NCBI GenBank assembly: GCA_003252295.1
Contig: QKEV01000004.1
Location: 1 to 36,490, forward strand
Reading direction: 5' to 3'
Source: a bacterium
GTDB lineage: Bacteria; Patescibacteriota; Minisyncoccia; Phycocordibacterales; UBA12088
Length of the DNA: 36,490 nucleotides
The notes under the pieces are model-generated. The model ran no database searches. It was given only the letters and a program-made list of their open reading frames with translations, and had not been told where the DNA came from. A program made the translations under genes and the position numbers. Shown piece by piece: positions 1 to 15,552 of the stretch (position 1 is its first letter; every line of letters begins with the position of its first letter).

Positions 1-701
1 GACTTACGCAACAATACACGCGCAAACTCATGCATTATTGAAAAATTCTTACCCCCTTCCGTATCTTTATTATTAACTAAAATTACAAAAGGTTCTTCGT
101 TAATTAAAGAAAAAGCCCTGCAATCTTCTAACGGAAAACTATCACTAAGACCACTTTTCAAAGTGATAACCCCAGTCTCTTCTATCTTTTCTCTCAGATA
201 TTCAAAAAACCCTTCGTAAGTTTTATATGCAAATTGTTTCTTAATTTCTATACCCAGTTCATCCCTTATGTAGGAAGCTATAGAAATTGGGTTATCTGTT
301 ACTTTATATTTCTTGAATTTAAATTTATTTTCATGATAAGTTTCTGTATATAGCGATGACGCATAATCCTGAATTTTTTTCGCCTTCCTTATTACCAATC
401 TCGTTTCAGGAGTTATGTCTCCACCACTTACTGACCCAAATGTTCTAAAGTCTGGAAGAGTCACATCTTCTTTAGGAGGTTCACTCAAAAAAAACACAGC
501 CAACGGTCTTTTGTATAGAACAGACAATTCCCTGATCTGACTAAATGTAGGGTACTCTGAACCTTCCTCCCAAACCTTAATCTCATCAACTGAAACTTTT
601 GCAGATGAAGGTATTTTTTTCTCAAGCACTTCAAACTTGGGTCCAAAACGATTTATACGAGCCCATTTCATCACTTCTGGTGCATAGGAGATATCATTCA
701 T
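1..701 (-). CDS. XRE-type HTH / ImmA-IrrE (peptidase M78, DUF955)-like protein; C-terminus lies beyond the window edge
   Basis: Own translation of the minus strand from ATG (701-699) gives MNDISYAPEVMKWARINRFGPKFEVLEKK...NKDTEGGKNFSIMHEFARVLLRK. It is open to position 1, so it is absent from the ORF track. The layout and the IMHEFAxxL segment resemble the HExxH region of ImmA/IrrE-type proteins, but the second His is Arg here. Confidence 0.5.
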   Translation of the reverse strand, partial: MNDISYAPEVMKWARINRFGPKFEVLEKKIPSSAKVSVDEIKVWEEGSEYPTFSQIRELSVLYKRPLAVFFLSEPPKEDVTLPDFRTFGSVSGGDITPETRLVIRKAKKIQDYASSLYTETYHENKFKFKKYKVTDNPISIASYIRDELGIEIKKQFAYKTYEGFFEYLREKIEETGVITLKSGLSDSFPLEDCRAFSLINEEPFVILVNNKDTEGGKNFSIMHEFARVLLRK

Positions 702-754
702 AATATAAGTGTATATCAATATAGATACATTACATTTATCGTAATGTGTAAAAA

Positions 755-776
755 CTGTCACTTTTGTCACTTTTTG
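755..776. promoter_or_regulatory. 22-nt motif CTGTCACTTTTGTCACTTTTTG (tandem GTCACTTTT), copy 1
   Basis: Identical 22-mer recurs at 4144-4165. Both copies lie in divergent intergenic regions. Function unknown (operator or promoter element, or part of a transcript). Confidence 0.5.
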
Positions 777-778
777 GT

Positions 779-1825
779 ATGCTGAATATCAACATGAATT
801 CCTTTCAAAAAAAATACAAGGTCCTTAAGGATATCAAAGAAAGAAAGAAATTGACTAAGAAAAAAGATCCCATCAACTTTACTCTCACTTCAAAAGTTGT
901 TGGTGCTAATACAGTTTCAAGTACCGACAGAAGAATGATCATAAGAAAATTGGAAGATGAAAAAGTTATTAAAATTGTTGCACCAACAGAAGAAGCTGAT
1001 TATGTAACTAGTGTTGACTTGCTGGACAGAGTTGACTCTATTTCCATAGAAACACTTCCAAAATTTATATTTATATGTGGATATTACTCACTAATTTCTA
1101 CCGTTCAACAAGTGTCAGGTTTTTTAAAAAACAAAAAATATCTTAATACTGGTTTTATCATTTTGCTTTTAATAACCTTATTATCTGCTGGGTATAAAAT
1201 ATCTGGAATACAAATTGGACCAATCAATCTTGAACCCTCTGAAGAAACACCTCCTCCTCTCTTTAAATACTCTTTTGATTCTAATGAAAAAGTTTTTAAG
1301 GTTACAGGCGATGAAAATGTAGACGTAATCAGTGCAGACTGGTTTATGATTGGTTACTGGGGATGGGAAGAAAACAAGCTCGATTTGAAAAAAGTTAACA
1401 ATCTAGATAAAGAGCTAAGTGTTATGGAAATCCGCGACGCATATGGTACTCCGTTAGTAAACATGCTTCAAAAATGGGGAAAAGATTTAATTGAATGTGA
1501 ATTTTTTAGACTTACTCAAGATGCTTTACCTGTAATGGTAACTACTATTTATGACACAACTGAAAAAACTGGTCTTGAAAACAAAGACCTACTAATCATT
1601 ACTCGAATAGATACCACCAGACCCAATCCAAAAATTTTTATAAGAAATGTCACAGATTACAGTATTGTTAACGATTTTTTTAATAAATATTCTTATCAAA
1701 TTATTGATGCTTCGGAACACATAAAAAATGACTATGAATATAGTAATGAAAACTATACAGGAGGTATTAGGTTAGATAACGGTAAATGTATGATGATTGA
1801 GAATCAACCACTTGGAGGATATTAA
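779..1825 (+). CDS. Hypothetical membrane protein: basic N-terminal region, two predicted TM helices, ~200-aa C-terminal domain
   Basis: ORF track 764-1825 starts at TTG; the first ATG is at 779. Hydrophobic stretches FIFICGYYSLISTV and GFIILLLITLLSAGY. No family recognised. Confidence 0.6.
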   Translation: MLNINMNSFQKKYKVLKDIKERKKLTKKKDPINFTLTSKVVGANTVSSTDRRMIIRKLEDEKVIKIVAPTEEADYVTSVDLLDRVDSISIETLPKFIFICGYYSLISTVQQVSGFLKNKKYLNTGFIILLLITLLSAGYKISGIQIGPINLEPSEETPPPLFKYSFDSNEKVFKVTGDENVDVISADWFMIGYWGWEENKLDLKKVNNLDKELSVMEIRDAYGTPLVNMLQKWGKDLIECEFFRLTQDALPVMVTTIYDTTEKTGLENKDLLIITRIDTTRPNPKIFIRNVTDYSIVNDFFNKYSYQIIDASEHIKNDYEYSNENYTGGIRLDNGKCMMIENQPLGGY

Positions 1826-1920
1826 TGCACGAGACGCGTCGTGAGGTTATTGAAAACTAGTTGAAAATAGCTATACCCTGCTTGGCAGACTGTGGTTCTA
1901 ACCCGAGACGGCCCGCCAAT
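1826..1920 (+). repeat. ~95-nt repeat element, copy 1 (candidate small structured RNA)
   Basis: Starts immediately after the TAA stop codon of the upstream ORF. Aligns with 4169-4262: a 52-nt left arm with 3 mismatches, a 15-nt divergent block, and a 27-nt right arm with 1 indel. Followed by an intrinsic terminator on the + strand. Confidence 0.6.
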
Positions 1921-1927
1921 TAGAGCT

Positions 1928-1970
1928 AGCACGAGACGCGTCAGAAATGACGCGTCTCTGCTCGTTTTGC
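1928..1970 (+). terminator. Rho-independent terminator
   Basis: AGCA(C)GAGACGCGTCA - GAAA - TGACGCGTCTCTGCT forms a 15-bp stem with one bulge, followed by CGTTTTGCTTT. Confidence 0.7.
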
Positions 1971-1984
1971 TTTATAATTTGTAT

Positions 1985-2149
1985 ATGAATGAAAAAGAAT
2001 ATTATTACAACCTGATCAAAGGTTGGCACTCAAAAGCTTCAAGTGATGATTATTTTGGAAAATTCATGTTTGAATACTTAGCATTTATCGCTTACCTTAA
2101 AACTCAGTGGAAAAATGAGCCTGAGTTAATAAGAATGACAGGAAACTGA
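1985..2149 (+). CDS. Small hypothetical protein (54 aa), possibly a gene fragment
   Basis: Internal ATG of track ORF 1892-2149; the upstream part of that ORF runs through the repeat and terminator. Sequence MNEKEYYYNLIKGWHSKASSDDYFGKFMFEYLAFIAYLK... No clear SD and no family assigned. Confidence 0.3.
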   Translation: MNEKEYYYNLIKGWHSKASSDDYFGKFMFEYLAFIAYLKTQWKNEPELIRMTGN

Positions 2150-2299
2150 AAGGTAGTGGTTGTTGATGTGTCTGCAGACACAATTCACTCCACTTTTATC
2201 TATTATACCATTCGGGTTTTTACACCTTCACTTTTTGAGAGTACAGTAAAAACACCGCACTACCTTACACTGTGGTATTTGACTTTAATCCAAAGGACT

Positions 2300-2878
2300 C
2301 TAATTTAGTTTATCGACAAGCATTCGCGCAAGTATGGCTATACGAGCTTCGTCTTTATGTTTTACAAGAGATTGTATGTATTTTTTATCACCCATCGAAA
2401 GATGAGATAGCATTATGCCAGATGACGTAAATGCAAGTATGCCCAAGATCTTGTTTTTTACATCCAAACTACGAGAATAGAGAGCGGTATGAATTGTTTT
2501 TTTATTCAGTAAATATTTACTAGCCACAACCTTGGGAAAGAGCGCACGAAGCGTAGCATTTGTAACTCGGTACTTATTTTTAGAAACATAACTCTCCAAT
2601 AATCTCCCTGACCACTCGTGATCCTTTGACCATCCAAGTAAACTGATTGCTCTTGGTAACTCTTTAGTGTTTTTGTACTTAGCGAGCAAAGACATACACA
2701 GTTCCTTATCTTTTGCTGTTTGAATAAAAGAGGTCTCATGTTTCTGCAAGATCATATCACTGGTACACCACCAATACCCCTTGTCGTATGTCATAACTAA
2801 ATCCACATTTAATTTTTGCTGGTATGTACCCAACAAAGAAACGTATTCTTTCAAGGACTGCATTACATCTTCATTCAT
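2300..2878 (-). CDS. Hypothetical protein (192 aa), downstream of the ATP-grasp gene
   Basis: ORF track. Same strand as the RiPP genes but separated from them by a hairpin. No recognisable motifs and no obvious SD. Confidence 0.5.
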   Translation of the reverse strand: MNEDVMQSLKEYVSLLGTYQQKLNVDLVMTYDKGYWWCTSDMILQKHETSFIQTAKDKELCMSLLAKYKNTKELPRAISLLGWSKDHEWSGRLLESYVSKNKYRVTNATLRALFPKVVASKYLLNKKTIHTALYSRSLDVKNKILGILAFTSSGIMLSHLSMGDKKYIQSLVKHKDEARIAILARMLVDKLN

Positions 2879-2895
2879 TGTGAGTATTGTATAGG

Positions 2896-2925
2896 AAAAT
2901 CGCGGTATTGAAACCGCGATTTTTT
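2896..2925. terminator. Hairpin with flanking A and T tracts (bidirectional terminator-like)
   Basis: AAAATCGCGGT - ATTGAA - ACCGCGATTTT, with a T5 run on the + strand. On the minus strand it follows the ATP-grasp stop codon at 2936. Confidence 0.5.
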
Positions 2926-2935
2926 ATGCCAACTC

Positions 2936-3295
2936 TTAAACCAAATGCCTAACAATGGTCTCACTAATCGGCATTCCAAGTTTAGTTTCCATCCATCCCC
3001 ATCCACCTTGTTGGTTCAGTTCAAGAAAGTAAAACTTGTCATTCACATCCTCAATGAGGTCAAAAACAGCAAATCGTAACTGCAATATCTTTAGCAATTT
3101 TCTACACCTCCCCATAACATCCGTTGGCAATCGATATGGTTTGGATGTCTCAGTTGCTTTTTCATTTTTCCTCCAATCAACATCATTCTTGCTTGCATCA
3201 CCAACACTACAAGCAAAAATTTCCTCATCAACCACAACTACACGTAGTTCCTGTTTTTTCTCGATTTCCTGTTGGAACAAAACAGGAGGATTCAT
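2936..3295 (-). CDS. ATP-grasp RiPP macrocyclase (MdnC/MvdD-like), C-terminal part
   Basis: PVLFQQEIEKKQELRVVVVDEEIFA, DWRK, PYRLP and YFLELNQQGGWGWMETKLGMPISETIVRHL match, from memory, the conserved blocks of microviridin-type ATP-grasp ligases (P.TFQE, ELR..VVG, DWRK, PY.LP, FLE.NP.G.W.E, PIS.AI). Confidence 0.8.
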   Translation of the reverse strand: MNPPVLFQQEIEKKQELRVVVVDEEIFACSVGDASKNDVDWRKNEKATETSKPYRLPTDVMGRCRKLLKILQLRFAVFDLIEDVNDKFYFLELNQQGGWGWMETKLGMPISETIVRHLV

Positions 3296-3852
3296 ATTTC
3301 CAAATGGTTGGCAGTTACCCTGTTTGTAAACAACACGGTATGTTTAGTGCCAGATGACACAATCCTCCCAACCTTTATGGCTTTTGTTATCACCCTCTTG
3401 TGTCTATCCCAAAACTTTCTAAGTTCCACAGAACTGTTAGTGACTATTGTTTCTGGCACCTCAAAACCAACACTCTGCGCAGTCCTGAGCTGCAGAAACT
3501 TTAGATCTGCATTATTAACCGCACTTGGGTAATTCATCCACAGCAATGGTGAGATATCACTTAACGAACCAAGTAGTGTGTCATGTAATTCCTGAATAGC
3601 GAATTGTTGGTATATGTCCTGAAGATTCGAAACAGAAAATGTACCAGCATGACGATACATTGTGTTGTATACGCCAGTAACACTATTTGCAACATCTGTA
3701 AGTTCTGAGGTTACGTGTGTTTGCCAAAGTATTTTATCTTCACCGTATGAATCGGCATCTATGGCAACATGGGGTATGTTTTTTTGAACACAGTAATTCT
3801 GAACAAGAAGTGCGTTGTTGTTGCCTCCTCGCTGAAACAAGACAAGTATCAT
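3292..3852 (-). CDS. ATP-grasp RiPP macrocyclase (MdnC/MvdD-like), N-terminal part
   Basis: KFLQLRTAQSVGFEVPETIVTNSSVELRKFW...VITKAIK...VLFTNRVT aligns with the central block of MdnC-type ligases. I place the start at ATG 3852 (MILVLFQRGG), which has GAGAGGT 4 nt upstream. The track start at 3891 lies inside a hairpin. The stop overlaps the next ORF's start codon as ATGA. Confidence 0.75.
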   Translation of the reverse strand: MILVLFQRGGNNNALLVQNYCVQKNIPHVAIDADSYGEDKILWQTHVTSELTDVANSVTGVYNTMYRHAGTFSVSNLQDIYQQFAIQELHDTLLGSLSDISPLLWMNYPSAVNNADLKFLQLRTAQSVGFEVPETIVTNSSVELRKFWDRHKRVITKAIKVGRIVSSGTKHTVLFTNRVTANHLEI

Positions 3853-3873
3853 AATGACCTCTCTTTTTAAAAC

Positions 3874-3900
3874 AGTCCCGCCATGAGTCATGGCGGGACT
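3874..3900 (-). promoter_or_regulatory. Intercistronic stem-loop between precursor ORF and ligase (attenuator, partial terminator or stabiliser)
   Basis: AGTCCCGCCATGA-G-TCATGGCGGGACT is a near-perfect 27-nt palindrome giving a ~11-12 bp GC-rich stem. On the minus-strand RNA it is followed by GUUUUAAAAAG. Confidence 0.55.
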
Positions 3901-3911
3901 TAGTCAAAATG

Positions 3912-4055
3912 TTAACCAATGCCAGGCAACGGCAAGGTGGGGTTGGGGCCTGCACAGCAGGTATCATCGTCGCATGTCTCAGTTTGGTCGTGTTCGATTT
4001 CCTCTGCAAAAATCATCTGAAAGGGCACATTACCGTTTTCGTTTTGTTCAGACAT
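3912..4055 (-). CDS. Candidate graspetide precursor peptide (47 aa), not in ORF track
   Basis: Own translation gives MSEQNENGNVPFQMIFAEEIEHDQTETCDDDTCCAGPNPTLPLPGIG*. SD AGAGGT lies 5 nt upstream of the ATG at 4055; the stop is TAA at 3914-3912. It sits on the same strand as the ATP-grasp ORF, 59 nt upstream of it. Confidence 0.6.
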   Translation of the reverse strand: MSEQNENGNVPFQMIFAEEIEHDQTETCDDDTCCAGPNPTLPLPGIG

Positions 4056-4095
4056 CTCATACCTCTTTTAGTTAAGTTTCAGTTGACTACTCTCG

Positions 4096-4140
4096 TCTAT
4101 AATCATGTATAACATAGTATTCAAAAAATACAACGGTCAA
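4096..4140 (-). promoter_or_regulatory. Candidate sigma70-type promoter(s) for the precursor/ligase operon
   Basis: Minus strand has TTGACC (4140-4135), an 18-nt spacer and TATGTT (4116-4111). Alternatively TTGAAT (4124-4119), a 17-nt spacer and TATAGA (4101-4096). Pattern match only. Confidence 0.3.
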
Positions 4141-4143
4141 AAT

Positions 4144-4165
4144 CTGTCACTTTTGTCACTTTTTG
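4144..4165. promoter_or_regulatory. 22-nt motif CTGTCACTTTTGTCACTTTTTG, copy 2
   Basis: Identical to 755-776. Lies just upstream of the candidate -35 of the minus-strand RiPP operon and 3 nt before repeat-element copy 2. Confidence 0.5.
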
Positions 4166-4168
4166 AGG

Positions 4169-4262
4169 TGCACGAGACGCGTCGTAAGGTTTTTGAAAAG
4201 TAGTTGAAAATAGCTATACCCCACCTGACGGGGCCTGGTTCTAACCCGAGACGGCCCGCAAT
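4169..4262 (+). repeat. ~95-nt repeat element, copy 2 (candidate small structured RNA)
   Basis: See 1826-1920. The variable block here is CCACCTGACGGGGCC (with the preceding CC it reads CCCC-ACCTGAC-GGGG), against CTGCTTGGCAGACTG in copy 1 (CTGC-TTG-GCAG). Confidence 0.6.
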
Positions 4263-4267
4263 CAACC

Positions 4268-4300
4268 AAAACCAGAGCGTTAGCTCTGGTTTTGTTGTTG
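4268..4300 (+). terminator. Rho-independent terminator
   Basis: AAAACCAGAGC - GTTA - GCTCTGGTTTT followed by GTTGTTGTT. Confidence 0.7.
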
Positions 4301-4455
4301 TTGCGAGAGAGTGTGGTGGTTCGAAAGCCGGAGCAGCGGGTCCCTGCTCGTAATGAAATGAAGAGTGGGGCTGCGAGGCGGGGTCGAAAGTGCTTAGTGT
4401 TTGAGAAGCTTTGCTTTGAATAACACTTAGCAACTCGTGACCGAATCCCACATAA
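4301..4455 (+). other. GC-rich, hairpin-dense non-coding stretch (candidate structured leader or ncRNA, class unknown)
   Basis: Hairpins GAGCAG-CGGGTCC-CTGCTC (4331-4349) and TGCTTAGTGTT...AACACTTAGCA (4391-4432, with an apical AAGC-TTT-GCTT). Possible closing pairs GTGGG (4365-4369) with CCCAC (4446-4450). Only implausible antisense ORFs cover this stretch. Confidence 0.3.
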
Positions 4456-4546
4456 TTTTATAGTAATCTCAGAGCGCAACATGACCACAGGTCGTGTGAG
4501 CAGTGAGATTCCCACCTTCAAAATTCCTCTGCTATACTGGGACTCA

Positions 4547-5302
4547 ATGAATACAAAAGTCACTCCTTTAGAAGGGGTAGAGTTTGATGTTTTGATTAGG
4601 AAAAGAATAAAAGACTTTTGGGGGTATGGTAGTTTAAAGTCTCCCGTGTGGTTTGTAGGTATGGAAGAAGGAGTAGGTGCAGGCACCCCAAGAAAAGACT
4701 TTCTCACTCGTTTTCGCCTTTCTGAAAACAAAGTGACAATCGATATGCGAGAAGGTATGGAAATTTACCCGGATCACATGCGCTGGTTTAAGGATGGAGC
4801 TCCTATTCAACCCACCTGGAAGTACCCTATTGCTCTCTATCTCTACCTGAAAAACAATATGATACCAATGAGAGAAGAGGTACGAGAACATCAAATACAC
4901 ACTCTTGCTGATAGTAAGAAAAAAGAAACTGCATGTATTGAACTCATGCCACTTCCTGCAAACTCAATAAAAGAAAACTCATGGGTCTACGGAAAACTCA
5001 ATGTTCCTAACTTGAGCACTCGCAAGGAATACATAGAAACGTATAAACCAAGACGAGTTGCGAAACTACAAAAACTCATCCAACAACATAAACCAAAGTT
5101 GGTTATCTTCTATTCCCTTACCTATCTGCCAGATTGGAAAAAAGTTATCGGAAAAGAAATAGAGGAAGTAACAAAAGGTATGTACTTCACTCAAACCAAA
5201 GACACCTCCTTCTGTGTTATTCCACAGAGTGTGTCGTTTGGTATGTCATACAAAAGACTGTATGCGTATGGTAAAAAGGTAAAAGATAAGATTATTTTAT
5301 AG
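4547..5302 (+). CDS. Hypothetical protein (251 aa)
   Basis: Track ORF 4481-5302. I prefer the internal ATG at 4547 (MNTKVTPLEG) because the upstream part overlaps the structured region. VWFVGMEEG and ELMPLPANS are faintly reminiscent of uracil-DNA-glycosylase-superfamily motifs; this is not a confident assignment. Confidence 0.55.
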   Translation: MNTKVTPLEGVEFDVLIRKRIKDFWGYGSLKSPVWFVGMEEGVGAGTPRKDFLTRFRLSENKVTIDMREGMEIYPDHMRWFKDGAPIQPTWKYPIALYLYLKNNMIPMREEVREHQIHTLADSKKKETACIELMPLPANSIKENSWVYGKLNVPNLSTRKEYIETYKPRRVAKLQKLIQQHKPKLVIFYSLTYLPDWKKVIGKEIEEVTKGMYFTQTKDTSFCVIPQSVSFGMSYKRLYAYGKKVKDKIIL

Positions 5303-5432
5303 ATATCAGTAAAAAATATATGGAGACCCCCAACCTCTTGCAGACTCACAAACAAATTGGTAGATAAACACACCGATATAGCACTTAAAAACATGATTTC
5401 ATTTGTAAAAATTACCTGTATACTTACCTACC

Positions 5433-6170
5433 ATGAAGAACAAAAAATATATTTCAGGTAGCGTACTCGTTCTAGCGATAATTGCGATAGTTGCGGGTAT
5501 ATTCTACGTACAAGAAAACAACAAAGTACAGATCGTTTCCCGTGATGATCCAACCGATATTGTTGTTGATTTTTACCAAACATGGCTGGATACCGTGCAG
5601 TCAACCAGTACTGATCCATACCAAGCAGGTCTTACAGACAACACACTCTTGAGTAAAGCATTGCAGAAAAAACTATCTCAAGCTCATGAAGCCAGCGACG
5701 TTGACCCGGTACTATGCCAGATTCCAACACCAAGACGGTTTAAGGTTGAAACTGCTTACGAGCAACCTGATGAGATACAAATGAATGTATTCTCCAAAGG
5801 ATCAGAAACGGTAAGTCAGTCAGTGGTTACCATACGACAACTTGACGAAGGTTGGTACATTGATGACATTTCCTGCATCAACGAATCTGACCCTAACACA
5901 GACCGTGAGTTTACCTTTGAACATGAAGGTGTCCTCTCAAAGGATCCCGCATTTGTGACCGATGCAGCATACTGGCACATCATATACATCCAGAACATTG
6001 TTCCTGACAGAGTTGTTCCCCTCTTCTTTGACACAGAAAGTACCTGTATCGACCAAGACAAGAAAGAATCAACTTGCGACCAAAACCAGTTCACCGAAAT
6101 GCAGCATGTCATTGTTCGTGGCAACATGACCGAAGCTGGACTTGAAGTACAGCAAGTTGAGACACTGTAA
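5433..6170 (+). CDS. Membrane-anchored hypothetical protein
   Basis: ORF track. N-terminal TM segment SVLVLAIIAIVAGIF followed by a soluble domain. Confidence 0.65.
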   Translation: MKNKKYISGSVLVLAIIAIVAGIFYVQENNKVQIVSRDDPTDIVVDFYQTWLDTVQSTSTDPYQAGLTDNTLLSKALQKKLSQAHEASDVDPVLCQIPTPRRFKVETAYEQPDEIQMNVFSKGSETVSQSVVTIRQLDEGWYIDDISCINESDPNTDREFTFEHEGVLSKDPAFVTDAAYWHIIYIQNIVPDRVVPLFFDTESTCIDQDKKESTCDQNQFTEMQHVIVRGNMTEAGLEVQQVETL

Positions 6171-6202
6171 CCATTTACCGAAGACTAACTCAGACAGAAA
6201 AC

Positions 6203-6235
6203 AAACCCCCAGGTCACATGTGACCTGGGGGTTTT
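6203..6235. terminator. Bidirectional terminator between convergent genes
   Basis: Perfect palindrome AAACCCCCAGGTCACA/TGTGACCTGGGGGTTT flanked by A and T runs. Confidence 0.75.
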
Positions 6236-6252
6236 GTGGCTATTACCTATAC

Positions 6253-6594
6253 CTACCGTTGCCATACTCTGAGTGTGATACCCTTTTCCGCTGCCATCTT
6301 TTCTGCCTCACCAATGAGTTCTGGAACAGATGAATTGTTACCTTTCGCGAACAAATCTATCCTCGCTTGGTTTTCAGGATTTGCCAGCTTCGGTGCTTGG
6401 GGATGATGAAGATACAACCATGCAATCACCTTCACTTTCCAGTCGTCAGCAGACTCCAGTCTTGCTACAAGAAAATTTTCATGAGATCGCTGCAACTTGA
6501 TTCCCTCTTCTGTGGGCTGTCTGTCACCCTTCTCACTTCCAAACGAGAGAAACCCTTCTCCGTGCTCAATTACTTTCTGAATGTCTTCACTCAT
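6253..6594 (-). CDS. Hypothetical protein (113 aa), paralog of 10576-10884
   Basis: ORF track. DWKVKVIAWLYLHHPQ...ELIGEAEKM parallels DKMVRVNAYFYLKHPK...EIITEAQKM in the other ORF. Confidence 0.6.
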   Translation of the reverse strand: MSEDIQKVIEHGEGFLSFGSEKGDRQPTEEGIKLQRSHENFLVARLESADDWKVKVIAWLYLHHPQAPKLANPENQARIDLFAKGNNSSVPELIGEAEKMAAEKGITLRVWQR

Positions 6595-6740
6595 ACCTTA
6601 TACCTCCTTATGTAAGATATATTCTCTAGCACAGGGCTAGTGTCTACACGCTACTATGCCAGAAGGTAAAAAAATTGTAAATATTTTCTACACGACCACC
6701 ATTTACACTCCAGCTTTAGTAAATATGCTACTATAGCTAC

Positions 6741-7340
6741 ATGAACGATGACTCACGTTTGGCAGACTTCCTCTTTGAACTAGGCACCATGCGAAAGGTG
6801 CTCAGGATGCACCGTCAAACTCTGTTGACTGATGATATGTCAGACAACATCGCGACACACTCACTGCGTGTGACCATGATCGGCTGGCTACTTGCAAAGA
6901 AAGAGAACGCTGACCTCTACAAGGTTGTCATGATGTGCCTACTACATGACCTTGGAGAGATACGAAGCAACGACCACAACTGGATCAACAAGCGCTACAT
7001 GAAGGTGCATGATGAAGAGATCATTGAAGAGCAGCTTGGTACACTACCCTTCCCTGAACTAAAAGAAATTGCACAAGAGTACGAGGAACGGAAAACAAAA
7101 GAAGCTATCATCGCAAAAGATGCTGACCTACTCGACCAAGTCCTCCTTTTGAAAGAGTACGAATGGCAAGGCAACAAAGAAGCAGCGGTATGGCTTCATG
7201 GAAAAGGAGATGATGTGGGCAACGCACAGCTCAAACGACTACAGCTCGACTCATCGAGAGAACTCGGAGAGGCTATCTACGGTAGAAATCCTTCAGACTG
7301 GTGGAACAACCTCTGGACCAGTGAGAACCGTAAAGATTAA
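6741..7340 (+). CDS. HD-domain phosphohydrolase (YfbR-like 5'-nucleotidase type)
   Basis: HSLRV ... LLHDLGE ... D motif pattern of the HD superfamily. Confidence 0.75.
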   Translation: MNDDSRLADFLFELGTMRKVLRMHRQTLLTDDMSDNIATHSLRVTMIGWLLAKKENADLYKVVMMCLLHDLGEIRSNDHNWINKRYMKVHDEEIIEEQLGTLPFPELKEIAQEYEERKTKEAIIAKDADLLDQVLLLKEYEWQGNKEAAVWLHGKGDDVGNAQLKRLQLDSSRELGEAIYGRNPSDWWNNLWTSENRKD

Positions 7341-7349
7341 TATAATTCT

Positions 7350-7772
7350 ATGGAACAAGAGCAAAAACCAAAAGTGGGTGTCGGAGTAATGATCTTTAAA
7401 GAAGGAAAGATTTTACTTGGCAAAAGAAAAGGTTCGCATGGTAGCGGAGAGTACGCCTTTCCCGGTGGACACCTAGAGTACATGGAATCTTTTGTAGATT
7501 GTGCAAAGAGAGAGATAGACGAAGAATGTGGCATAGAAGTTGAAAACATCAGCTTTCAGTATGTTGGAAATATTGTGAAGTACGCACCAAAACACTATGT
7601 ACACATAGGACTCACTGCAGACTGGAAAAGTGGTACACCAAAAGTACTTGAACCAGACAAGGTAGAAACATGGGACTGGTATGATATGGAAGAACTACCT
7701 AAACCAATGTTTGAAATGAGCGAACTAGCGATTAAGTATCATAAAACTGGAGAAAACTATATAGACGAGTAA
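7350..7772 (+). CDS. NUDIX hydrolase
   Basis: Canonical Nudix box GGHLEYMESFVDCAKREIDEECGI (Gx5Ex7REUxEExGU). Confidence 0.85.
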   Translation: MEQEQKPKVGVGVMIFKEGKILLGKRKGSHGSGEYAFPGGHLEYMESFVDCAKREIDEECGIEVENISFQYVGNIVKYAPKHYVHIGLTADWKSGTPKVLEPDKVETWDWYDMEELPKPMFEMSELAIKYHKTGENYIDE

Positions 7773-7789
7773 TGCAACATAAAAAAACC

Positions 7790-7876
7790 ATGACCGCATA
7801 CAACAAACTCGTGAGAGACAGCATCCCGGAAATGCTCGATGGGAAAAATATTCCCTACGACCTCAAGGGTGACTAA
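7790..7876 (+). pseudogene. Truncated MazG-like NTP pyrophosphohydrolase remnant (28 codons)
   Basis: Own translation gives MTAYNKLVRDSIPEMLDGKNIPYDLKGD*. YNKLVRD.IPE is the typical N-terminus of small MazG-type house-cleaning NTPases, but the ORF stops after 28 aa. Confidence 0.45.
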
Positions 7877-7890
7877 AACAAACTCCTTAC

Positions 7891-8067
7891 TTACTCCTTC
7901 CAGTCGGTTATCACCACACTGCTACCCTTCTTTTTGACCACTACTTTTTGCTTACTCTTCCATTTGAGCTCTCGGACTATCTCAATAGGAAGCGAAACTG
8001 TTATGGTACCTCCTCCTGCCTTACCGAGTTTACGAATATTTTTTTCTTCAAGTTTTCTTCGTGTCAT
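7891..8067 (-). CDS. AbrB/MazE/SpoVT-family DNA-binding protein (58 aa), not in ORF track
   Basis: Own translation gives MTRRKLEEKNIRKLGKAGGGTITVSLPIEIVRELKWKSKQKVVVKKKGSSVVITDWKE*. The block ..VSLPIEIVRELKWK...V.V is the SpoVT-AbrB swapped-hairpin signature. Confidence 0.6.
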   Translation of the reverse strand: MTRRKLEEKNIRKLGKAGGGTITVSLPIEIVRELKWKSKQKVVVKKKGSSVVITDWKE

Positions 8068-8083
8068 ATATACACAGTCTAAC

Positions 8084-8123
8084 AGAAATACATATTAAAA
8101 TACGTATTTTAATATGTATTTCT
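8084..8123. promoter_or_regulatory. Perfect 40-bp palindrome in the divergent abrB-like / tyrS promoter region
   Basis: AGAAATACATATTAAAATAC|GTATTTTAATATGTATTTCT. It lies upstream of both flanking gene starts, so it is more likely an operator than a terminator. Confidence 0.5.
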
Positions 8124-8193
8124 TTTTCATGGTGCTTTTTCAGAGAATACGGTACACTAACAACGTTGAATAGTAACTAGTATTTCTAGGTGT

Positions 8194-9414
8194 ATGACCA
8201 AGGTAATAACTGATAAAGAAAAAATAGAAGAGCTACTGATGCGCTCTGTAGCAGAGATACTCCCTTCAAGGGATGGTCTTCGTGAGGCACTCTCATCTGG
8301 TAAGCAGCTCCGTATCTACATAGGTACAGACCCGACTGGTACTTCCCTACACCTCGGACACGCAACCAACTACATGATCCTTGAGAAGTTTCGCAGACTT
8401 GGACACGAGATTATTTTCCTCGTTGGTGACTTTACTGCACGCATTGGTGACCCGACCGACAAGAGCGACTCGGCACGAAAGCAGCTCACCCGTGAGCAGG
8501 TTGTCGAACATGTAAAGACTTGGATGGACCAGGTGCGACCGATTATCGACATAGACAACAAAGAGAACCCTGTTCGAGTCCTCTACAACCACGAGTGGCT
8601 CTCGAAGCTCACCTTTGAGGATGTTGTGAACCTCGCTTCAAACTTTACCGTGCAGCAGATGATAGAACGAGACATGTTCCAGGTGCGCATACAGGAAGGA
8701 AAACCACTCTACATGCACGAACTGTTCTACCCGCTCATGCAAGGATACGACTCTGTTGCTATGGATGTCGACATTGAAATGTGCGGTGCTGACCAGAAGT
8801 TCAATGCACTTGCGGGACGAACCCTTTTGAAGAAACTGAAGGATAAGGAAAAGTTTGTCTTCATTACTACTCTTCTCGAGAATCCGGTCACCAAAGAGAA
8901 GATGATGTCAAAATCAATGGGAACAGGTGTGTTCCTCGACTTTGACGCAGAGCACATGTACGGCGCCATCATGGCTCAAGCTGATGAAAACATGCGGCAG
9001 CTCTTCGTGGACTGCACATGGCTCACACTTGAAGAGATAGAGGAGAAGCTCAAGGGTGACAACCCTCGAGACACAAAAATGCAGCTTGCTCTTGAAATCA
9101 CCAAGATCTACCACGGAGAAGATGCAGCACAGAAAGCACAGAACGCTTTTGTGCAAACATTCCAAAAGAAAGAGGTGCCTGACGACATGCCAGACTTTAC
9201 CGTTACCGCAAAAATGACCCTTATAGACATCTTAACCAAGAGCGGTCTTGCAACTAGCAGGACCGATGCTCGACGCACCGTTGAACAAGGTGCTGTTAAA
9301 CTGAACGGTGAAAAGGTTGCTGTTGACGCACTTGAACAGACTGTAAACCTCAAAGATGGTGAGGTGGTCCTCCAGAAAGGTAAACGCTACTTCCTTCGAC
9401 TTTTACAAAAGTAA
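8194..9414 (+). CDS. tyrS: Tyrosine--tRNA ligase
   Basis: GTDPTGTSLHLGH (HIGH), KMMSKSMG (KMSKS) and a C-terminal S4-like domain (RTDARRTVEQGAVKLNGEKV). Confidence 0.9.
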   Translation: MTKVITDKEKIEELLMRSVAEILPSRDGLREALSSGKQLRIYIGTDPTGTSLHLGHATNYMILEKFRRLGHEIIFLVGDFTARIGDPTDKSDSARKQLTREQVVEHVKTWMDQVRPIIDIDNKENPVRVLYNHEWLSKLTFEDVVNLASNFTVQQMIERDMFQVRIQEGKPLYMHELFYPLMQGYDSVAMDVDIEMCGADQKFNALAGRTLLKKLKDKEKFVFITTLLENPVTKEKMMSKSMGTGVFLDFDAEHMYGAIMAQADENMRQLFVDCTWLTLEEIEEKLKGDNPRDTKMQLALEITKIYHGEDAAQKAQNAFVQTFQKKEVPDDMPDFTVTAKMTLIDILTKSGLATSRTDARRTVEQGAVKLNGEKVAVDALEQTVNLKDGEVVLQKGKRYFLRLLQK

Positions 9415-12625: not shown

Positions 12626-15463
12626 TTACTTCACCACAAGACTCACCATGCGACCCTTCACCACAATCTCGCGCACTACCTCCTTCCCTGCAAGGTGAGG
12701 CTTCACACCATCAACCTCCTTTGCCTTCTTCACGAGCTCGCTGTCCTCTGTATCAGGTGCCGCTTCAAAGGTACCACGCGTCTTGCCGTTCACCTGTACC
12801 GCAACGGTAACTGTTGCCGCTGCAAGTATACTCTCATCACACACTGGCCACTCCTCTAAGTGAATTGAGTCTGTTCCGCCTAGCTCTGACCACAGCTCCT
12901 CGGTGAGATGTGGCGCAAATGGTGCGAGCAGCTTCAAGAATGTTTTGTACTCTTCAGTACCTACCGACGTACGTTTCTCCATATCGTTTGTATGTATCAT
13001 GAGCTGGCTTATAGCAGTATTGAATGAGAAGTCTTGCACATCACGAGCAACTTTTTGTATGGTCTGATGCAGCACCAGTTCATTCATCTCACCATCATCA
13101 CTCACCTTTTCTTTGATGCCGTACACCTTTTCAAGGAAACGACGAGCACCGGTCATGTGGTCAGTTGACCATGCTATCGCCTGCACAAACGGACCCATGA
13201 ACATCTCATACACACGTAGCGTATCTGCACCAACGTTGTCTATCACGTCGTCTGGGTTGATAACATTACCCCAGCGCTTACTCATCTTTCGTCCATCCTC
13301 AGCCTGAATGAGCCCCACGGTGTAGAGTTTTTGGAACGGTTCTATATAGCTCACAGCTCCTATGTCGTAGAGCACTTTATGCCAAAAGCGTGAATAGATG
13401 AGGTGTCGTGTTGCATGCTCCATGCCTCCTACATACATGTCGACAGGAGACCAGTACTGCTCCTTTTTCTTGTCTACTAGCTCTTTATCGTTCTTTGGGT
13501 CAATGTAGCGCAAGTAGTACCATGATGAACCTGCCCACTGCGGCATGGTGTTCGTCTCACGCTTTCCCGGAGCTCCACACGTTGGACACGTAGTGTTCAC
13601 CCACCCTTCAATGTTCGCAAGTGGTGACTCACCGGTTCCCGTCGGCTCGTAGCTCTCAACATCAGGAAGAATGACAGGGAGATCCTCTTCTGGAACAGCA
13701 ACAGGACCACACTTTTCACAATGAATAATCGGAATAGGTTCACCCCAGTATCGCTGTCGAGAGAACACCCAGTCCTGCAAACGGTACTGAGTAGTGAGCT
13801 TACCGCCAGCATGCTTGGTTACTTTCTCTTTTGCTTCCTCTACCGTAAGCCCATCAAACTTTCCTGAGTTCATGAGAAAACCATAGCCAGGTAGTGCTTC
13901 ATCACGTTGCAACAAGCTCCACACTTGCTTTTGATGGTCAGGTATGAGCCTCTCAAGCACCTCAGACTCATCCACCCATACGAGCGTATGCTTCTTTGCT
14001 TCGTCCTCAGGAATCTCACCTTGATTCTTTACACTATCCACCTCAGCAAGAAATACATGAGCAATCGCAAGCCTGTTTTCTTTTTTATGTGATGCACAGT
14101 ATCTAGCAGCTGTAATCCATTCGAGTTTCTTTATGATTGTAACGCCGGCAAGTGCTGCTTCTTCCTCTATCTCAGCAAGTACAGCCTCCTCAGGAGTCTG
14201 CCCTTCCTCTATACCACCCATGATGGCAGTAGTAATACCTTCGAGTGTGCCATGCCAATCCAGGAGCGCATACTTACCCGTTTCTTTATCTTTCAAGTGA
14301 ACTATGACGGTGTCTCGCTTCACTTCAGTAAATCCTTCTTGTGGAGGATTGTTTGAGTCATCAGCACATGGCACCACTACCTGACGGATAGGAAGGTTGA
14401 ACTTTTTTGCAAACGCAAAGTCTCGTTCATCATGAGCTGGGACTGCCATGATGGCACCTGTACCGTAGGTAGCAAGTACGTAGTCAGCAAGGTAAACCGG
14501 TATCTCTTCATTGTTAACTGGGTTTACCGCATAGACACCATCAAGTACTACCCCTGTCTTCTCCTTCCCTTCTGCCGTACGTTCTATCTCTGTCTTCTTA
14601 GCAGTTTGCTCAATGTACACTTCAACCTCTTTTCTATTTGTAACTACTTCAAGAAAATCTGAAACAAAAGCATGCTCAGGAGCAAGTACCATGTACGTAG
14701 CACCAAAAAGTGTATCAGGTCGTGTCGTAAAGACCTCTATCTTCTTGTCACTATCTTTTACCGCAAAGGTGACCGACGCACCCTCACTGCGACCTATCCA
14801 GTTTCGCTGCATCTCCTTTACAGACTCAGACCAAGGCAAATCCTCAAGGTCCTCGAGCAGCCTGTCTGCATACTCAGTTATTTTGAGCACCCACTGTCGC
14901 ATTGGCTTCTTCTCTACTACGGTACCACAGCGCTCACACACGTTACCTTCAAGGTCTTCGTTTGCGAGTCCTGTCTTGCAGCTCGGACACCAGTTGATAG
15001 GTTCATGTGACTCAAACGCTAAACCACGCTCAAACATCTTCACGAACGCCCACTGCGTCCATTTGTAAAACTCAGGGTCAGTTGTGTTTATCTCTCTATC
15101 CCAGTCATAGTTAAAACCAATCTTTTCCAACTGCTCTTTGAAACGTGCCACGTTCTTCTTTACTGCTATTTCAGGATGCACCTTGTTCTTGATCGCATAG
15201 TTCTCAGCAGGAAGACCAAAAGCGTCCCACCCCATTGGATGCAGTACATTGCAGCCACTCATGGACTTGAAACGTGCGTACACATCTGTTGCAATGTACC
15301 CCTTCGGATGACCCACATGGAGCCCATCACCTGATGGGTACGGGAACATATCCATAATAAAGTACTTCTCCTTCCCCTCGTCTTCACGTGTTTTATACAG
15401 GGCGGTATCACTCCACTTCTTTTGCCACTTCTTTTCTATTGCTTTGTGATCGTATGATTTCAT
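12626..15463 (-). CDS. leuS: Leucine--tRNA ligase with an internal Nudix-like insertion
   Basis: PYPSGDGLHVGHPKGY (HIGH), TTRPDTLFGATY (CP1 editing domain), KMSKRWGNV (KMSKS). The track ORF starts at GTG 15484. I prefer ATG 15463 (MKSYDHKAIEKKWQKKW), which matches the usual LeuRS N-terminus. Confidence 0.9.
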   Translation of the reverse strand: MKSYDHKAIEKKWQKKWSDTALYKTREDEGKEKYFIMDMFPYPSGDGLHVGHPKGYIATDVYARFKSMSGCNVLHPMGWDAFGLPAENYAIKNKVHPEIAVKKNVARFKEQLEKIGFNYDWDREINTTDPEFYKWTQWAFVKMFERGLAFESHEPINWCPSCKTGLANEDLEGNVCERCGTVVEKKPMRQWVLKITEYADRLLEDLEDLPWSESVKEMQRNWIGRSEGASVTFAVKDSDKKIEVFTTRPDTLFGATYMVLAPEHAFVSDFLEVVTNRKEVEVYIEQTAKKTEIERTAEGKEKTGVVLDGVYAVNPVNNEEIPVYLADYVLATYGTGAIMAVPAHDERDFAFAKKFNLPIRQVVVPCADDSNNPPQEGFTEVKRDTVIVHLKDKETGKYALLDWHGTLEGITTAIMGGIEEGQTPEEAVLAEIEEEAALAGVTIIKKLEWITAARYCASHKKENRLAIAHVFLAEVDSVKNQGEIPEDEAKKHTLVWVDESEVLERLIPDHQKQVWSLLQRDEALPGYGFLMNSGKFDGLTVEEAKEKVTKHAGGKLTTQYRLQDWVFSRQRYWGEPIPIIHCEKCGPVAVPEEDLPVILPDVESYEPTGTGESPLANIEGWVNTTCPTCGAPGKRETNTMPQWAGSSWYYLRYIDPKNDKELVDKKKEQYWSPVDMYVGGMEHATRHLIYSRFWHKVLYDIGAVSYIEPFQKLYTVGLIQAEDGRKMSKRWGNVINPDDVIDNVGADTLRVYEMFMGPFVQAIAWSTDHMTGARRFLEKVYGIKEKVSDDGEMNELVLHQTIQKVARDVQDFSFNTAISQLMIHTNDMEKRTSVGTEEYKTFLKLLAPFAPHLTEELWSELGGTDSIHLEEWPVCDESILAAATVTVAVQVNGKTRGTFEAAPDTEDSELVKKAKEVDGVKPHLAGKEVVREIVVKGRMVSLVVK

Positions 15464-15552
15464 ATTTGCTACTGAGGATAACACCCCCTATTAATTGTCT
15501 AATACACTATATACTGTATATACGAGCAGCTACTCGTGCAAATAACTATACA

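Follow-up and report, generated by a model that had tools for sequence, protein, structure and literature searches.

A conserved 47-codon gene beside a graspetide-type ATP-grasp ligase in a Patescibacteria contig, and its likely role as a precursor

The stretch of DNA considered here, referred to throughout as the window, comprises 36,490 nucleotides (positions 1 to 36,490 of contig QKEV01000004.1). Near its left end, on the minus strand, a reading frame of 47 codons precedes a gene for an ATP-grasp ligase. The question raised by this locus is whether so short a frame is a gene at all and, if it is, whether its product is the substrate of the enzyme encoded behind it. A preliminary description, made from the sequence of the window alone, had proposed that it specifies the precursor of a graspetide, i.e. 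of an omega-ester or omega-lactam peptide.

The peptide gene, its conservation and its surroundings

When the sequence was re-read, the ORF, its Shine-Dalgarno sequence and the 59-nt spacer that separates it from the ligase start (ATG 3852) were all as the preliminary description had given them; the stop codon is TAA (3914-3912, minus strand). The ligase start was set at ATG 3852 by alignment with homologues that begin MILVLFQRGG, and the in-frame ATG at 3891 was not taken. The size of the ORF is not significant by itself, given that 102 ORFs of at least 30 amino acids overlap the first 9 kb of the window; it is taken to be more than a chance frame because it is conserved. The features discussed are collected in Table 1.

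Table 1. Positions of the peptide gene, the ligase, the third gene and the associated signals in the window
Feature	Position	Strand	Remarks
192-aa armadillo/HEAT-like alpha-solenoid protein, putative partner or peptide-binding protein	2300..2878	-	Co-occurs with the ligase
Second terminator-like hairpin, ATCGCGG-N7-CCGCGAT followed by TTTT	2899..2920	-	In the interval between ligase and third gene; kept in L001
Ligase, C-terminal part, 119 aa	2936..3295	-	Model positions 200-318; DWR and ExN metal-binding motifs
Ligase, N-terminal part, 186 aa	3292..3852	-	TIGR04187, TIGR04185, TIGR04184, model positions about 12-192; ORF ended by a TGA that the frameshift creates
Site of 13-nt deletion	3296..3298	-	AAGCAACTTCACA in L031; KATSH lost and frame shifted
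12-bp GC-rich hairpin followed by GUUUU, terminator- or attenuator-like	3869..3900	-	-27.4 kcal/mol, z = -5.7
47-aa peptide gene, putative graspetide-like precursor	3912..4055	-	ATG start, 47 codons; encodes MSEQNENGNVPFQMIFAEEIEHDQTETCDDDTCCAGPNPTLPLPGIG
Shine-Dalgarno sequence AGAGGT	4066-4061	-	5 nt ahead of the ATG at 4055
Promoter-like upstream region kept with L001	4085..4140	-	Candidate TTGACC-18-TATGTT at 4140-4111; consensus match only

A search of 5.8 billion protein clusters gave two homologues of the peptide that had been called as proteins; on both contigs, the peptide gene is followed by an ATP-grasp gene of 309-323 amino acids and then by a gene for a protein of 195-205. In all, nine distinct homologues are recognized; they are 25-48 amino acids long, carry a net charge of -5 to -10 and are almost without lysine. 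The preliminary description had expected a conserved small ORF beside homologous ligases, and one was found at every ligase locus with upstream sequence (9/9); next to ligases at 42-80% identity, an ORF of 47-48 amino acids lies just upstream wherever the sequence extends that far. An HMM built from six of the peptides has a single match in the window (E 5e-30), and also one match each, with E values of 1e-21 to 1e-30, upstream of the ligase in four loci (L008, L011, L013 and L030) that had been retrieved via the ligase and not via the peptide. Two divergent copies score weakly (E 0.005 in L036 and 0.31 in L039) and were accepted on position and motifs, their loci having been retrieved via the third gene described below. 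The peptide of L036 has 48 amino acids and is encoded on the strand opposite to its ligase; that of L039, with the sequence MDFLLQYAVDLSEESEQPTLPFSFG, has 25 and is the smallest member.

There is also evidence of selection on the 47 codons, for which the preliminary description had suggested looking. Pairwise dN/dS (Nei-Gojobori; window against its 80-87% identical relatives) is 0.06-0.13, which indicates strong purifying selection. The peptide genes of the window and L001 differ by 12 synonymous and five non-synonymous changes, and all five of the latter fall in residues 25-37. Positive selection on this variable middle found no support, as dN is well below dS there too. The alternative that the ORF arose by chance within an intergenic leader can appeal to the abundance of small ORFs and to the two plus-strand ORFs that overlap the region. 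However, the substitutions track the codon phase of the minus strand, with the dN/dS values just given, and the peptide is kept down to 32-45% identity with a Shine-Dalgarno sequence in front. The conservation of the homologues and the dN/dS values refute this alternative, the probability of which is negligible, and these sequence comparisons establish the 47 codons as a genuine gene that has been conserved.

Conservation with L001 starts approximately 90 nt upstream of the peptide start codon. Besides the promoter candidate in Table 1, a second promoter-like sequence, TTGAAT-17-TATAGA, was read by eye upstream of the peptide gene. The hairpin between peptide gene and ligase differs from that of L001 in ways that preserve pairing, and an equivalent hairpin of other sequence, of -24 to -28 kcal/mol, follows the peptide gene in all eight co-oriented loci. 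A precursor gene, a hairpin and an enzyme gene, in that order, form a known layout of RiPP and bacteriocin operons, in which precursor mRNA is kept in excess. On the other side of the peptide gene, a non-coding spacer of approximately 330 nt (4150-4480), richer in GC at approximately 44%, separates it from a divergent 273-aa ORF (4481..5302, plus strand); it includes a 12-bp hairpin at 4267-4294, and only its proximal 90 nt or so are kept with L001. An Rfam scan of positions 1-9000 found nothing relevant to the hairpins or to this spacer.

The ligase, the third gene and the distribution of the cassette

The preliminary description had called the neighbouring enzyme an MdnC/MvdD-type ATP-grasp gene. 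Its placement in the graspetide-synthetase clade holds, given the TIGR04185, TIGR04187 and TIGR04184 matches and the reach of the family profile, the best match of which is MdnB (5IG8, E 2.8e-42), followed by AMdnB (7M4S, 2.3e-41), CdnC (7MGV, 2.3e-39), MdnC (5IG9, 3e-37) and PsnB (7DRM, 1.6e-13). Both parts of the ligase match the NCBIfam models of MvdC, MvdD and the SAV_5884 maturase (1e-15 to 3e-31), although the halves score far below the curated cut-offs (e.g. 108 versus 425). Seven members of the family share an invariant set of residues, K157, K203/204, R208, D230-W231-R232, D269 and E282-x-N284, all of which are present in the halves encoded by the window. A D-F/W-R ('DFR') motif is described as critical for graspetide synthetases (PMC13097080). 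On the strength of these profile and motif matches, the neighbour is a graspetide-type ATP-grasp ligase.

What needs correction in the earlier claim is the state of the neighbouring gene, and with it the mention of two ligase ORFs: the two are halves of one gene, split by a 13-nt deletion, and intact relatives have a single ligase gene. In all seven ligase relatives, the enzyme is a single ORF of 309-316 amino acids. The gap was found by DNA alignment to L001. L031, a contig assembled from two other samples and syntenic with the window, is identical to it at 3478 of 3478 aligned bases outside the 13-nt gap and encodes an intact ligase of 309 amino acids. The deleted KATSH sits in a variable linker, and the two halves share an ATGA stop/start overlap (3292-3295) at a native methionine. 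An AlphaFold model of the ligase, made from seven sequences, has a pLDDT of 64.8, with low confidence at residues 169-193 around the deletion. The ligase of the window is split either by a very recent frameshift or by an assembly error, and the pathway in this assembled genome is probably inactive, or else reliant on reassembly of the enzyme from two pieces.

The ligase is followed, on its 3' side, by a third gene in every locus that extends that far, encoding proteins of 191-209 amino acids. Searches of Pfam and NCBIfam with the 192-aa protein of the window found no family. With 29 clusters at 90% identity and 85 representatives at E < 1e-3, the family is a small one, and its named members are proteins of Paceibacterota MAGs. 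An AlphaFold2 model (pLDDT 92.6) is an all-alpha solenoid of 11 helices with one beta-hairpin. The best PDB matches found with Foldseek are designed armadillo repeat proteins and importin-alpha, although these matches are weak (E approximately 1e-3, TM 0.45-0.49). Assignment of the third gene to cluster 23 (DUF6624) was considered and rejected: the motifs differ, there is no Pfam DUF6624 match, and distant homologues match Pfam HEAT_2 instead. Armadillo-type scaffolds, including designed armadillo repeat proteins and importin-alpha, bind extended peptides, and for this reason the modelled fold suggests that the 192-aa protein is probably a partner or a peptide-binding protein.

Peptide gene, ligase (309-318 amino acids) and third gene are found together in L001, L002-5, L008-10, L011, L013, L036 and L039; L030 and L031 have the peptide gene and the ligase on contigs that end before the third gene. 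Loci retrieved via the ligase and loci retrieved via the third gene independently carry the peptide. The cassette spans approximately 1.85 kb (about 2300-4150 in the window). In two divergent cassettes, the peptide gene is immediately preceded by one for a GNAT acetyltransferase (L008-L010, 4982-5629; L036, 1695-2159), and in L008-10 a UbiE-like methyltransferase gene lies 3' of the third gene (7692-8393). These may be tailoring enzymes; both are absent from the window. The third gene occurs alone in L034/L035 and L038.

The taxonomy of the cassette is based on contig labels and, for the window, on its TyrRS, which shares 60-77% identity with its counterparts in Patescibacteria MAGs that carry the labels Yanofskybacteria, Taylorbacteria, Saccharibacteria and Moranbacteria. 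Other housekeeping genes in the window encode LeuRS, YchF, ATP synthase, transketolase, GAPDH and RNase J. The LeuRS ORF (12626-15484, minus strand, 952 aa) has a NUDIX match at residues 410-518, at the junction of editing domain and catalytic core, an unusual insertion. Positions 1-5400, which include the cassette and two ORFs without Pfam matches (764..1825 and 4481..5302), have a GC content of 32-40%, versus 44-49% in the housekeeping genes and elsewhere in the window, which suggests that the low-GC left end is an acquired island. Cassettes elsewhere adjoin IS110, rve, IS21 or DDE transposases. Taken together, the low GC content and the transposases beside cassettes in other loci suggest a mobile module of approximately 1.85 kb. 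Scans of GTDB genomes found one close ligase locus only, which is truncated (L018), and two third-gene loci. The cassette is rare, so far seen only in Patescibacteria-like contigs and often beside transposases.

These observations bear on whether the cassette of the window is a dead remnant, its peptide gene being intact only because inactivation is recent. We would give this about an even chance. The ligase is split by a frameshifting deletion, the cassette lies in a low-GC island, and decayed copies are found elsewhere: a Saccharibacteria-labelled MAG retains the last 131 amino acids of the ligase and the third gene without a peptide gene (L018, 4004-4399), and in a Paceibacterota MAG the third gene is frameshifted and the ligase absent (L033, 3391-3968). 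On the other hand, the deletion may be due to misassembly or belong to a minority variant, as the otherwise identical L031 contig is intact, and the C-terminal half begins at a native methionine with an ATGA overlap, so that coupled translation and assembly from two pieces are possible. It should be noted that such decay would bear on present activity and not on the identity of the ORF.

Anatomy of the peptide and the reaction proposed for it

The peptide comprises a putative recognition helix (F12-F16), an acidic variable middle (approximately residues 25-37) and a conserved C-terminal NPTLPLPGIG. In the nine peptides, the helix conforms to F-[QL]-h-h-[FY]-[AV], in which F12 never varies and position 16 is occupied by Phe or Tyr. 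The preliminary description had likened PFQMIF to the microviridin recognition motif; the Phe-x3-Phe/Tyr spacing is indeed conserved, but the proline is not, and the fit to the Phhx(1,2)h signature (PMC8939145) is not a strict one. An acidic stretch follows the helix across the family (IEHD in the window). From helix to tail, the peptides vary in both length and sequence, over 10 to 26 residues.

The core proposed earlier, TETCDDDTCC, falls in the least conserved segment of the family, and its three cysteines occur only in the three closest sequences. What had been called a Pro-rich tail is the most conserved part: [QND]-P-[TS]-L-P-x-[PS]-x-h-G forms the end of all nine peptides, glycine is the last residue in each, and the Thr/Ser of QP(T/S)LP is the sole invariant hydroxyl in the family. 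Offsets of acidic residues from this Thr range from -2 to -26, none being common to all nine. A second pattern, [ST]-x(1-5)-[DE] after the helix, is also present in all nine (T25...D29-31 in the window), although composition alone could yield it. The peptide of the window has a net charge of -10 and no lysine; since the family as a whole is almost without lysine, esters rather than lactams would be expected if the products are graspetides.

A search of Pfam-A and NCBIfam with the peptide, curated precursor models included, gave no family at E <= 0.1. The earlier observation that the peptide does not match the cores of microviridin, plesiocin or thuringinin is borne out, all three patterns being absent from its sequence. 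The suggestion of a new class is reasonable: no known precursor family matches, and the motifs do not occur in the supplements of the two largest surveys of graspetides, as far as these were covered.

We consider it likely, from position, composition and conservation, that the graspetide-type macrocyclase encoded next to it has the 47-aa product of this ORF as its ribosomal substrate, or precursor. In the scheme that we favour, the peptide gene would be transcribed from its own promoter, and a leaky hairpin terminator would keep peptide mRNA above ligase mRNA. The N-terminal amphipathic helix, F12-Q-M-I-F16-A-E, would dock on the ligase in the manner of the microviridin leader helix, and the ligase would phosphorylate side chains of Asp/Glu within the strongly acidic segment. 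Attack by a Thr/Ser hydroxyl would then give one or more omega-ester macrolactones. The first candidate for the donor is the Thr/Ser of QP(T/S)LP; the second is that of the [ST]-x(1-5)-[DE] pattern. The solenoid protein, as a partner, would probably bind the extended Pro-rich C-terminal motif or stabilize the ligase. Counted against this reading are the variable spacing of donor and acceptor across the family, the unconserved proline of the leader, the low NCBIfam scores of the ligase halves, the weakness of the Foldseek matches of the third protein, the opposite orientation of the peptide gene in L036, the interrupted ligase of the window, the cassette's lack of a protease or exporter gene, and the occurrence of the third-gene family without a ligase in L034/35 and L038.

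Could the peptide be a substrate for a different reaction? Activation of alpha-carboxylates is within the general reach of ATP-grasp enzymes, RimK and LysX being examples. The carboxylate of the C-terminal glycine might accordingly be activated, to give a lariat lactone from Thr to the C-terminus or a ligation to another molecule or protein, while the armadillo-like protein holds the QPTLPxPxxG tail. That glycine ends every peptide, that the tail is the most conserved segment and that no acidic residue has a fixed position relative to the motif Thr all fit such a reaction, as does the existence of RimK and LysX, though these are only weak relatives of the ligase. We regard it nevertheless as quite improbable: the ligase clusters firmly with MdnB, MdnC, CdnC and PsnB, which activate side-chain carboxylates, and keeps the DWR motif of such enzymes; acidic residues are plentiful in every peptide; and a recognition sequence would explain the conserved tail equally well.

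Alternatively, the small protein might be an accessory or regulatory peptide, such as a chaperone-like helper of the kind proposed for the Bacteroidetes 'LPL' family, with the true substrate encoded elsewhere. Small proteins that are not precursors do occur in ATP-grasp loci, and there are CPR loci in which no precursor can be found (PMC8939145); the peptide contains the tripeptide L-P-L, and in one locus its gene is on the opposite strand. Membership of the LPL family itself, to which this tripeptide pointed, is ruled out by the published alignment (PMC8939145): LPL proteins are basic proteins of 52-79 amino acids with a KLPL motif near the N-terminus and a link to SPASM enzymes, and they show no similarity to the peptide. 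As to an accessory role more generally, the smallest member, with 25 amino acids, is too small for a folded chaperone; helix, acidic and hydroxyl-rich segment and a terminator hairpin before the enzyme gene are precursor-like in composition and position; and the cassette holds no other conserved candidate substrate. The probability of an accessory role is very small.

Within the preferred reading, that of a precursor, a bolder proposal can be made for the architecture, which we put forward as unlikely in its full form. The helix and the C-terminal QP(T/S)LPxPxxG-COOH may be anchors on either side of a variable acidic loop, 10 to 26 residues long, with the armadillo-like protein reading the 'follower' motif. 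Cross-linking of the motif Thr, possibly to the carboxylate of the terminal Gly or to a distant acid, would close a large display loop, and the product might be used by episymbiotic Patescibacteria against hosts or competitors.

Patescibacteria have tiny genomes with few biosynthetic genes, and because of this any peptide-modification genes that are retained probably matter for an epibiotic lifestyle. The cassette also offers a very small, defined system that is open to synthesis, with a peptide of 25-48 amino acids, a ligase of approximately 310 and an armadillo/HEAT-like protein of approximately 190.

Relation to known graspetide systems

Judged from sequence and predicted fold, the cassette most likely represents a graspetide-like group of Patescibacteria that is rare and apparently uncatalogued. 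Its precursor has an unusual layout, its companion is armadillo/HEAT-like, and the known precursor classes would gain one. The advance is incremental: the RiPP class is a known one, and clusters of it had been predicted in this little-studied phylum as early as 2022.

In the microviridin pathway (group 1; MdnA; MdnB/MdnC = MvdC/MvdD), as in the cassette, a small precursor gene lies immediately before one for an ATP-grasp ligase, the clade being the same in both, and the leader has an aromatic-x3-aromatic helix, of which PFFARFL is the microviridin form. The GNAT enzymes whose genes adjoin the peptide gene in L008-10 and L036, though not in the window, are reminiscent of MdnD. The differences are that a single ligase is present rather than two, and that this ligase falls far below the MvdC/MvdD equivalog cut-offs; that the peptide has no lysine (no lactam is expected) and no TxKxPSDx(D/E)(D/E) core; that the conserved motif closes the peptide at its C-terminus; and that the cassette includes the additional armadillo/HEAT-like protein. 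With plesiocin/PsnB (group 2) and thuringinin (group 3), the common features are a single ligase and ester-only chemistry, esters being what is predicted for the peptide described here. However, neither a TTxxxxEE nor a TxxTxxTxxExxDxD repeat core can be read from its sequence, and the match of the ligase family to PsnB is much weaker than that to MdnB.

More distant relatives of the ligase (25-32% identity) occur in Dyella, Rhodanobacteraceae, Legionella and a soil contig. Small ORFs with leaders of the RPFAR(L/M) type or the GG type lie upstream of them (L019, 3418-3606; L021, 3401-3577; L020, 3135-3374 and 5955-6131; L027, 2295-2453), and from their sequences these look like further graspetide precursors. 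Such ordinary-looking upstream precursors place the ligase family inside the graspetide radiation.

Graspetide clusters of the Candidate Phyla Radiation were predicted in 2022 by Makarova et al., in branches 1 and 2 (PMC8939145), and RODEO groups 27 and 42 of Carter et al. (2026) include candidate phyla (PMC13097080). For many branch 2 loci, precursors were not found, and the authors suggested that small ORFs had been missed (PMC8939145). The calling of ORFs of fewer than 50 codons can supply the missing substrates of orphan ligases. The cassette resembles the published CPR clusters (PMC8939145, PMC13097080) in its host phylum, in its compactness, with an ATP-grasp gene and an uncharacterized companion, and in the UbiE-like methyltransferase that is sometimes adjacent, as in L008. 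It differs in the companion: that of the published clusters (cluster 23 / DUF6624) shows DQxxR-type motifs and, in many cases, a lipoprotein signal, and neither is found in the 192-aa protein. In group 42, the companion is likewise DUF6624, and the example precursor, MKKNSTPKPLILDRL...GFTTHGTPNDPDSGGTD, is unrelated to the peptide described here. The peptide, ligase and third-protein strings are absent from the supplements of PMC8939145 and PMC13097080, as far as these were covered.

Finally, synthesis of a graspetide that depends on a partner protein has precedent: the first such cases were reported by Carter et al. (2026; PMC13097080), and 35% of the clusters of group 8 include a HEAT repeat protein. 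In the rosaritide system (MirA/MirB/MirC; PMC13097080), as in the cassette, the synthetase keeps D-F/W-R and co-occurs strictly with a protein that looks non-catalytic, proposed there to be a chaperone or substrate-delivery partner. The host of rosaritide is Micromonospora rather than a member of the Patescibacteria, and its partner is SurA/PpiC-like, whereas the putative partner described here is a 192-aa armadillo/HEAT-like solenoid; the cassette may thus add a second, unrelated case of partner-protein-dependent graspetide synthesis.
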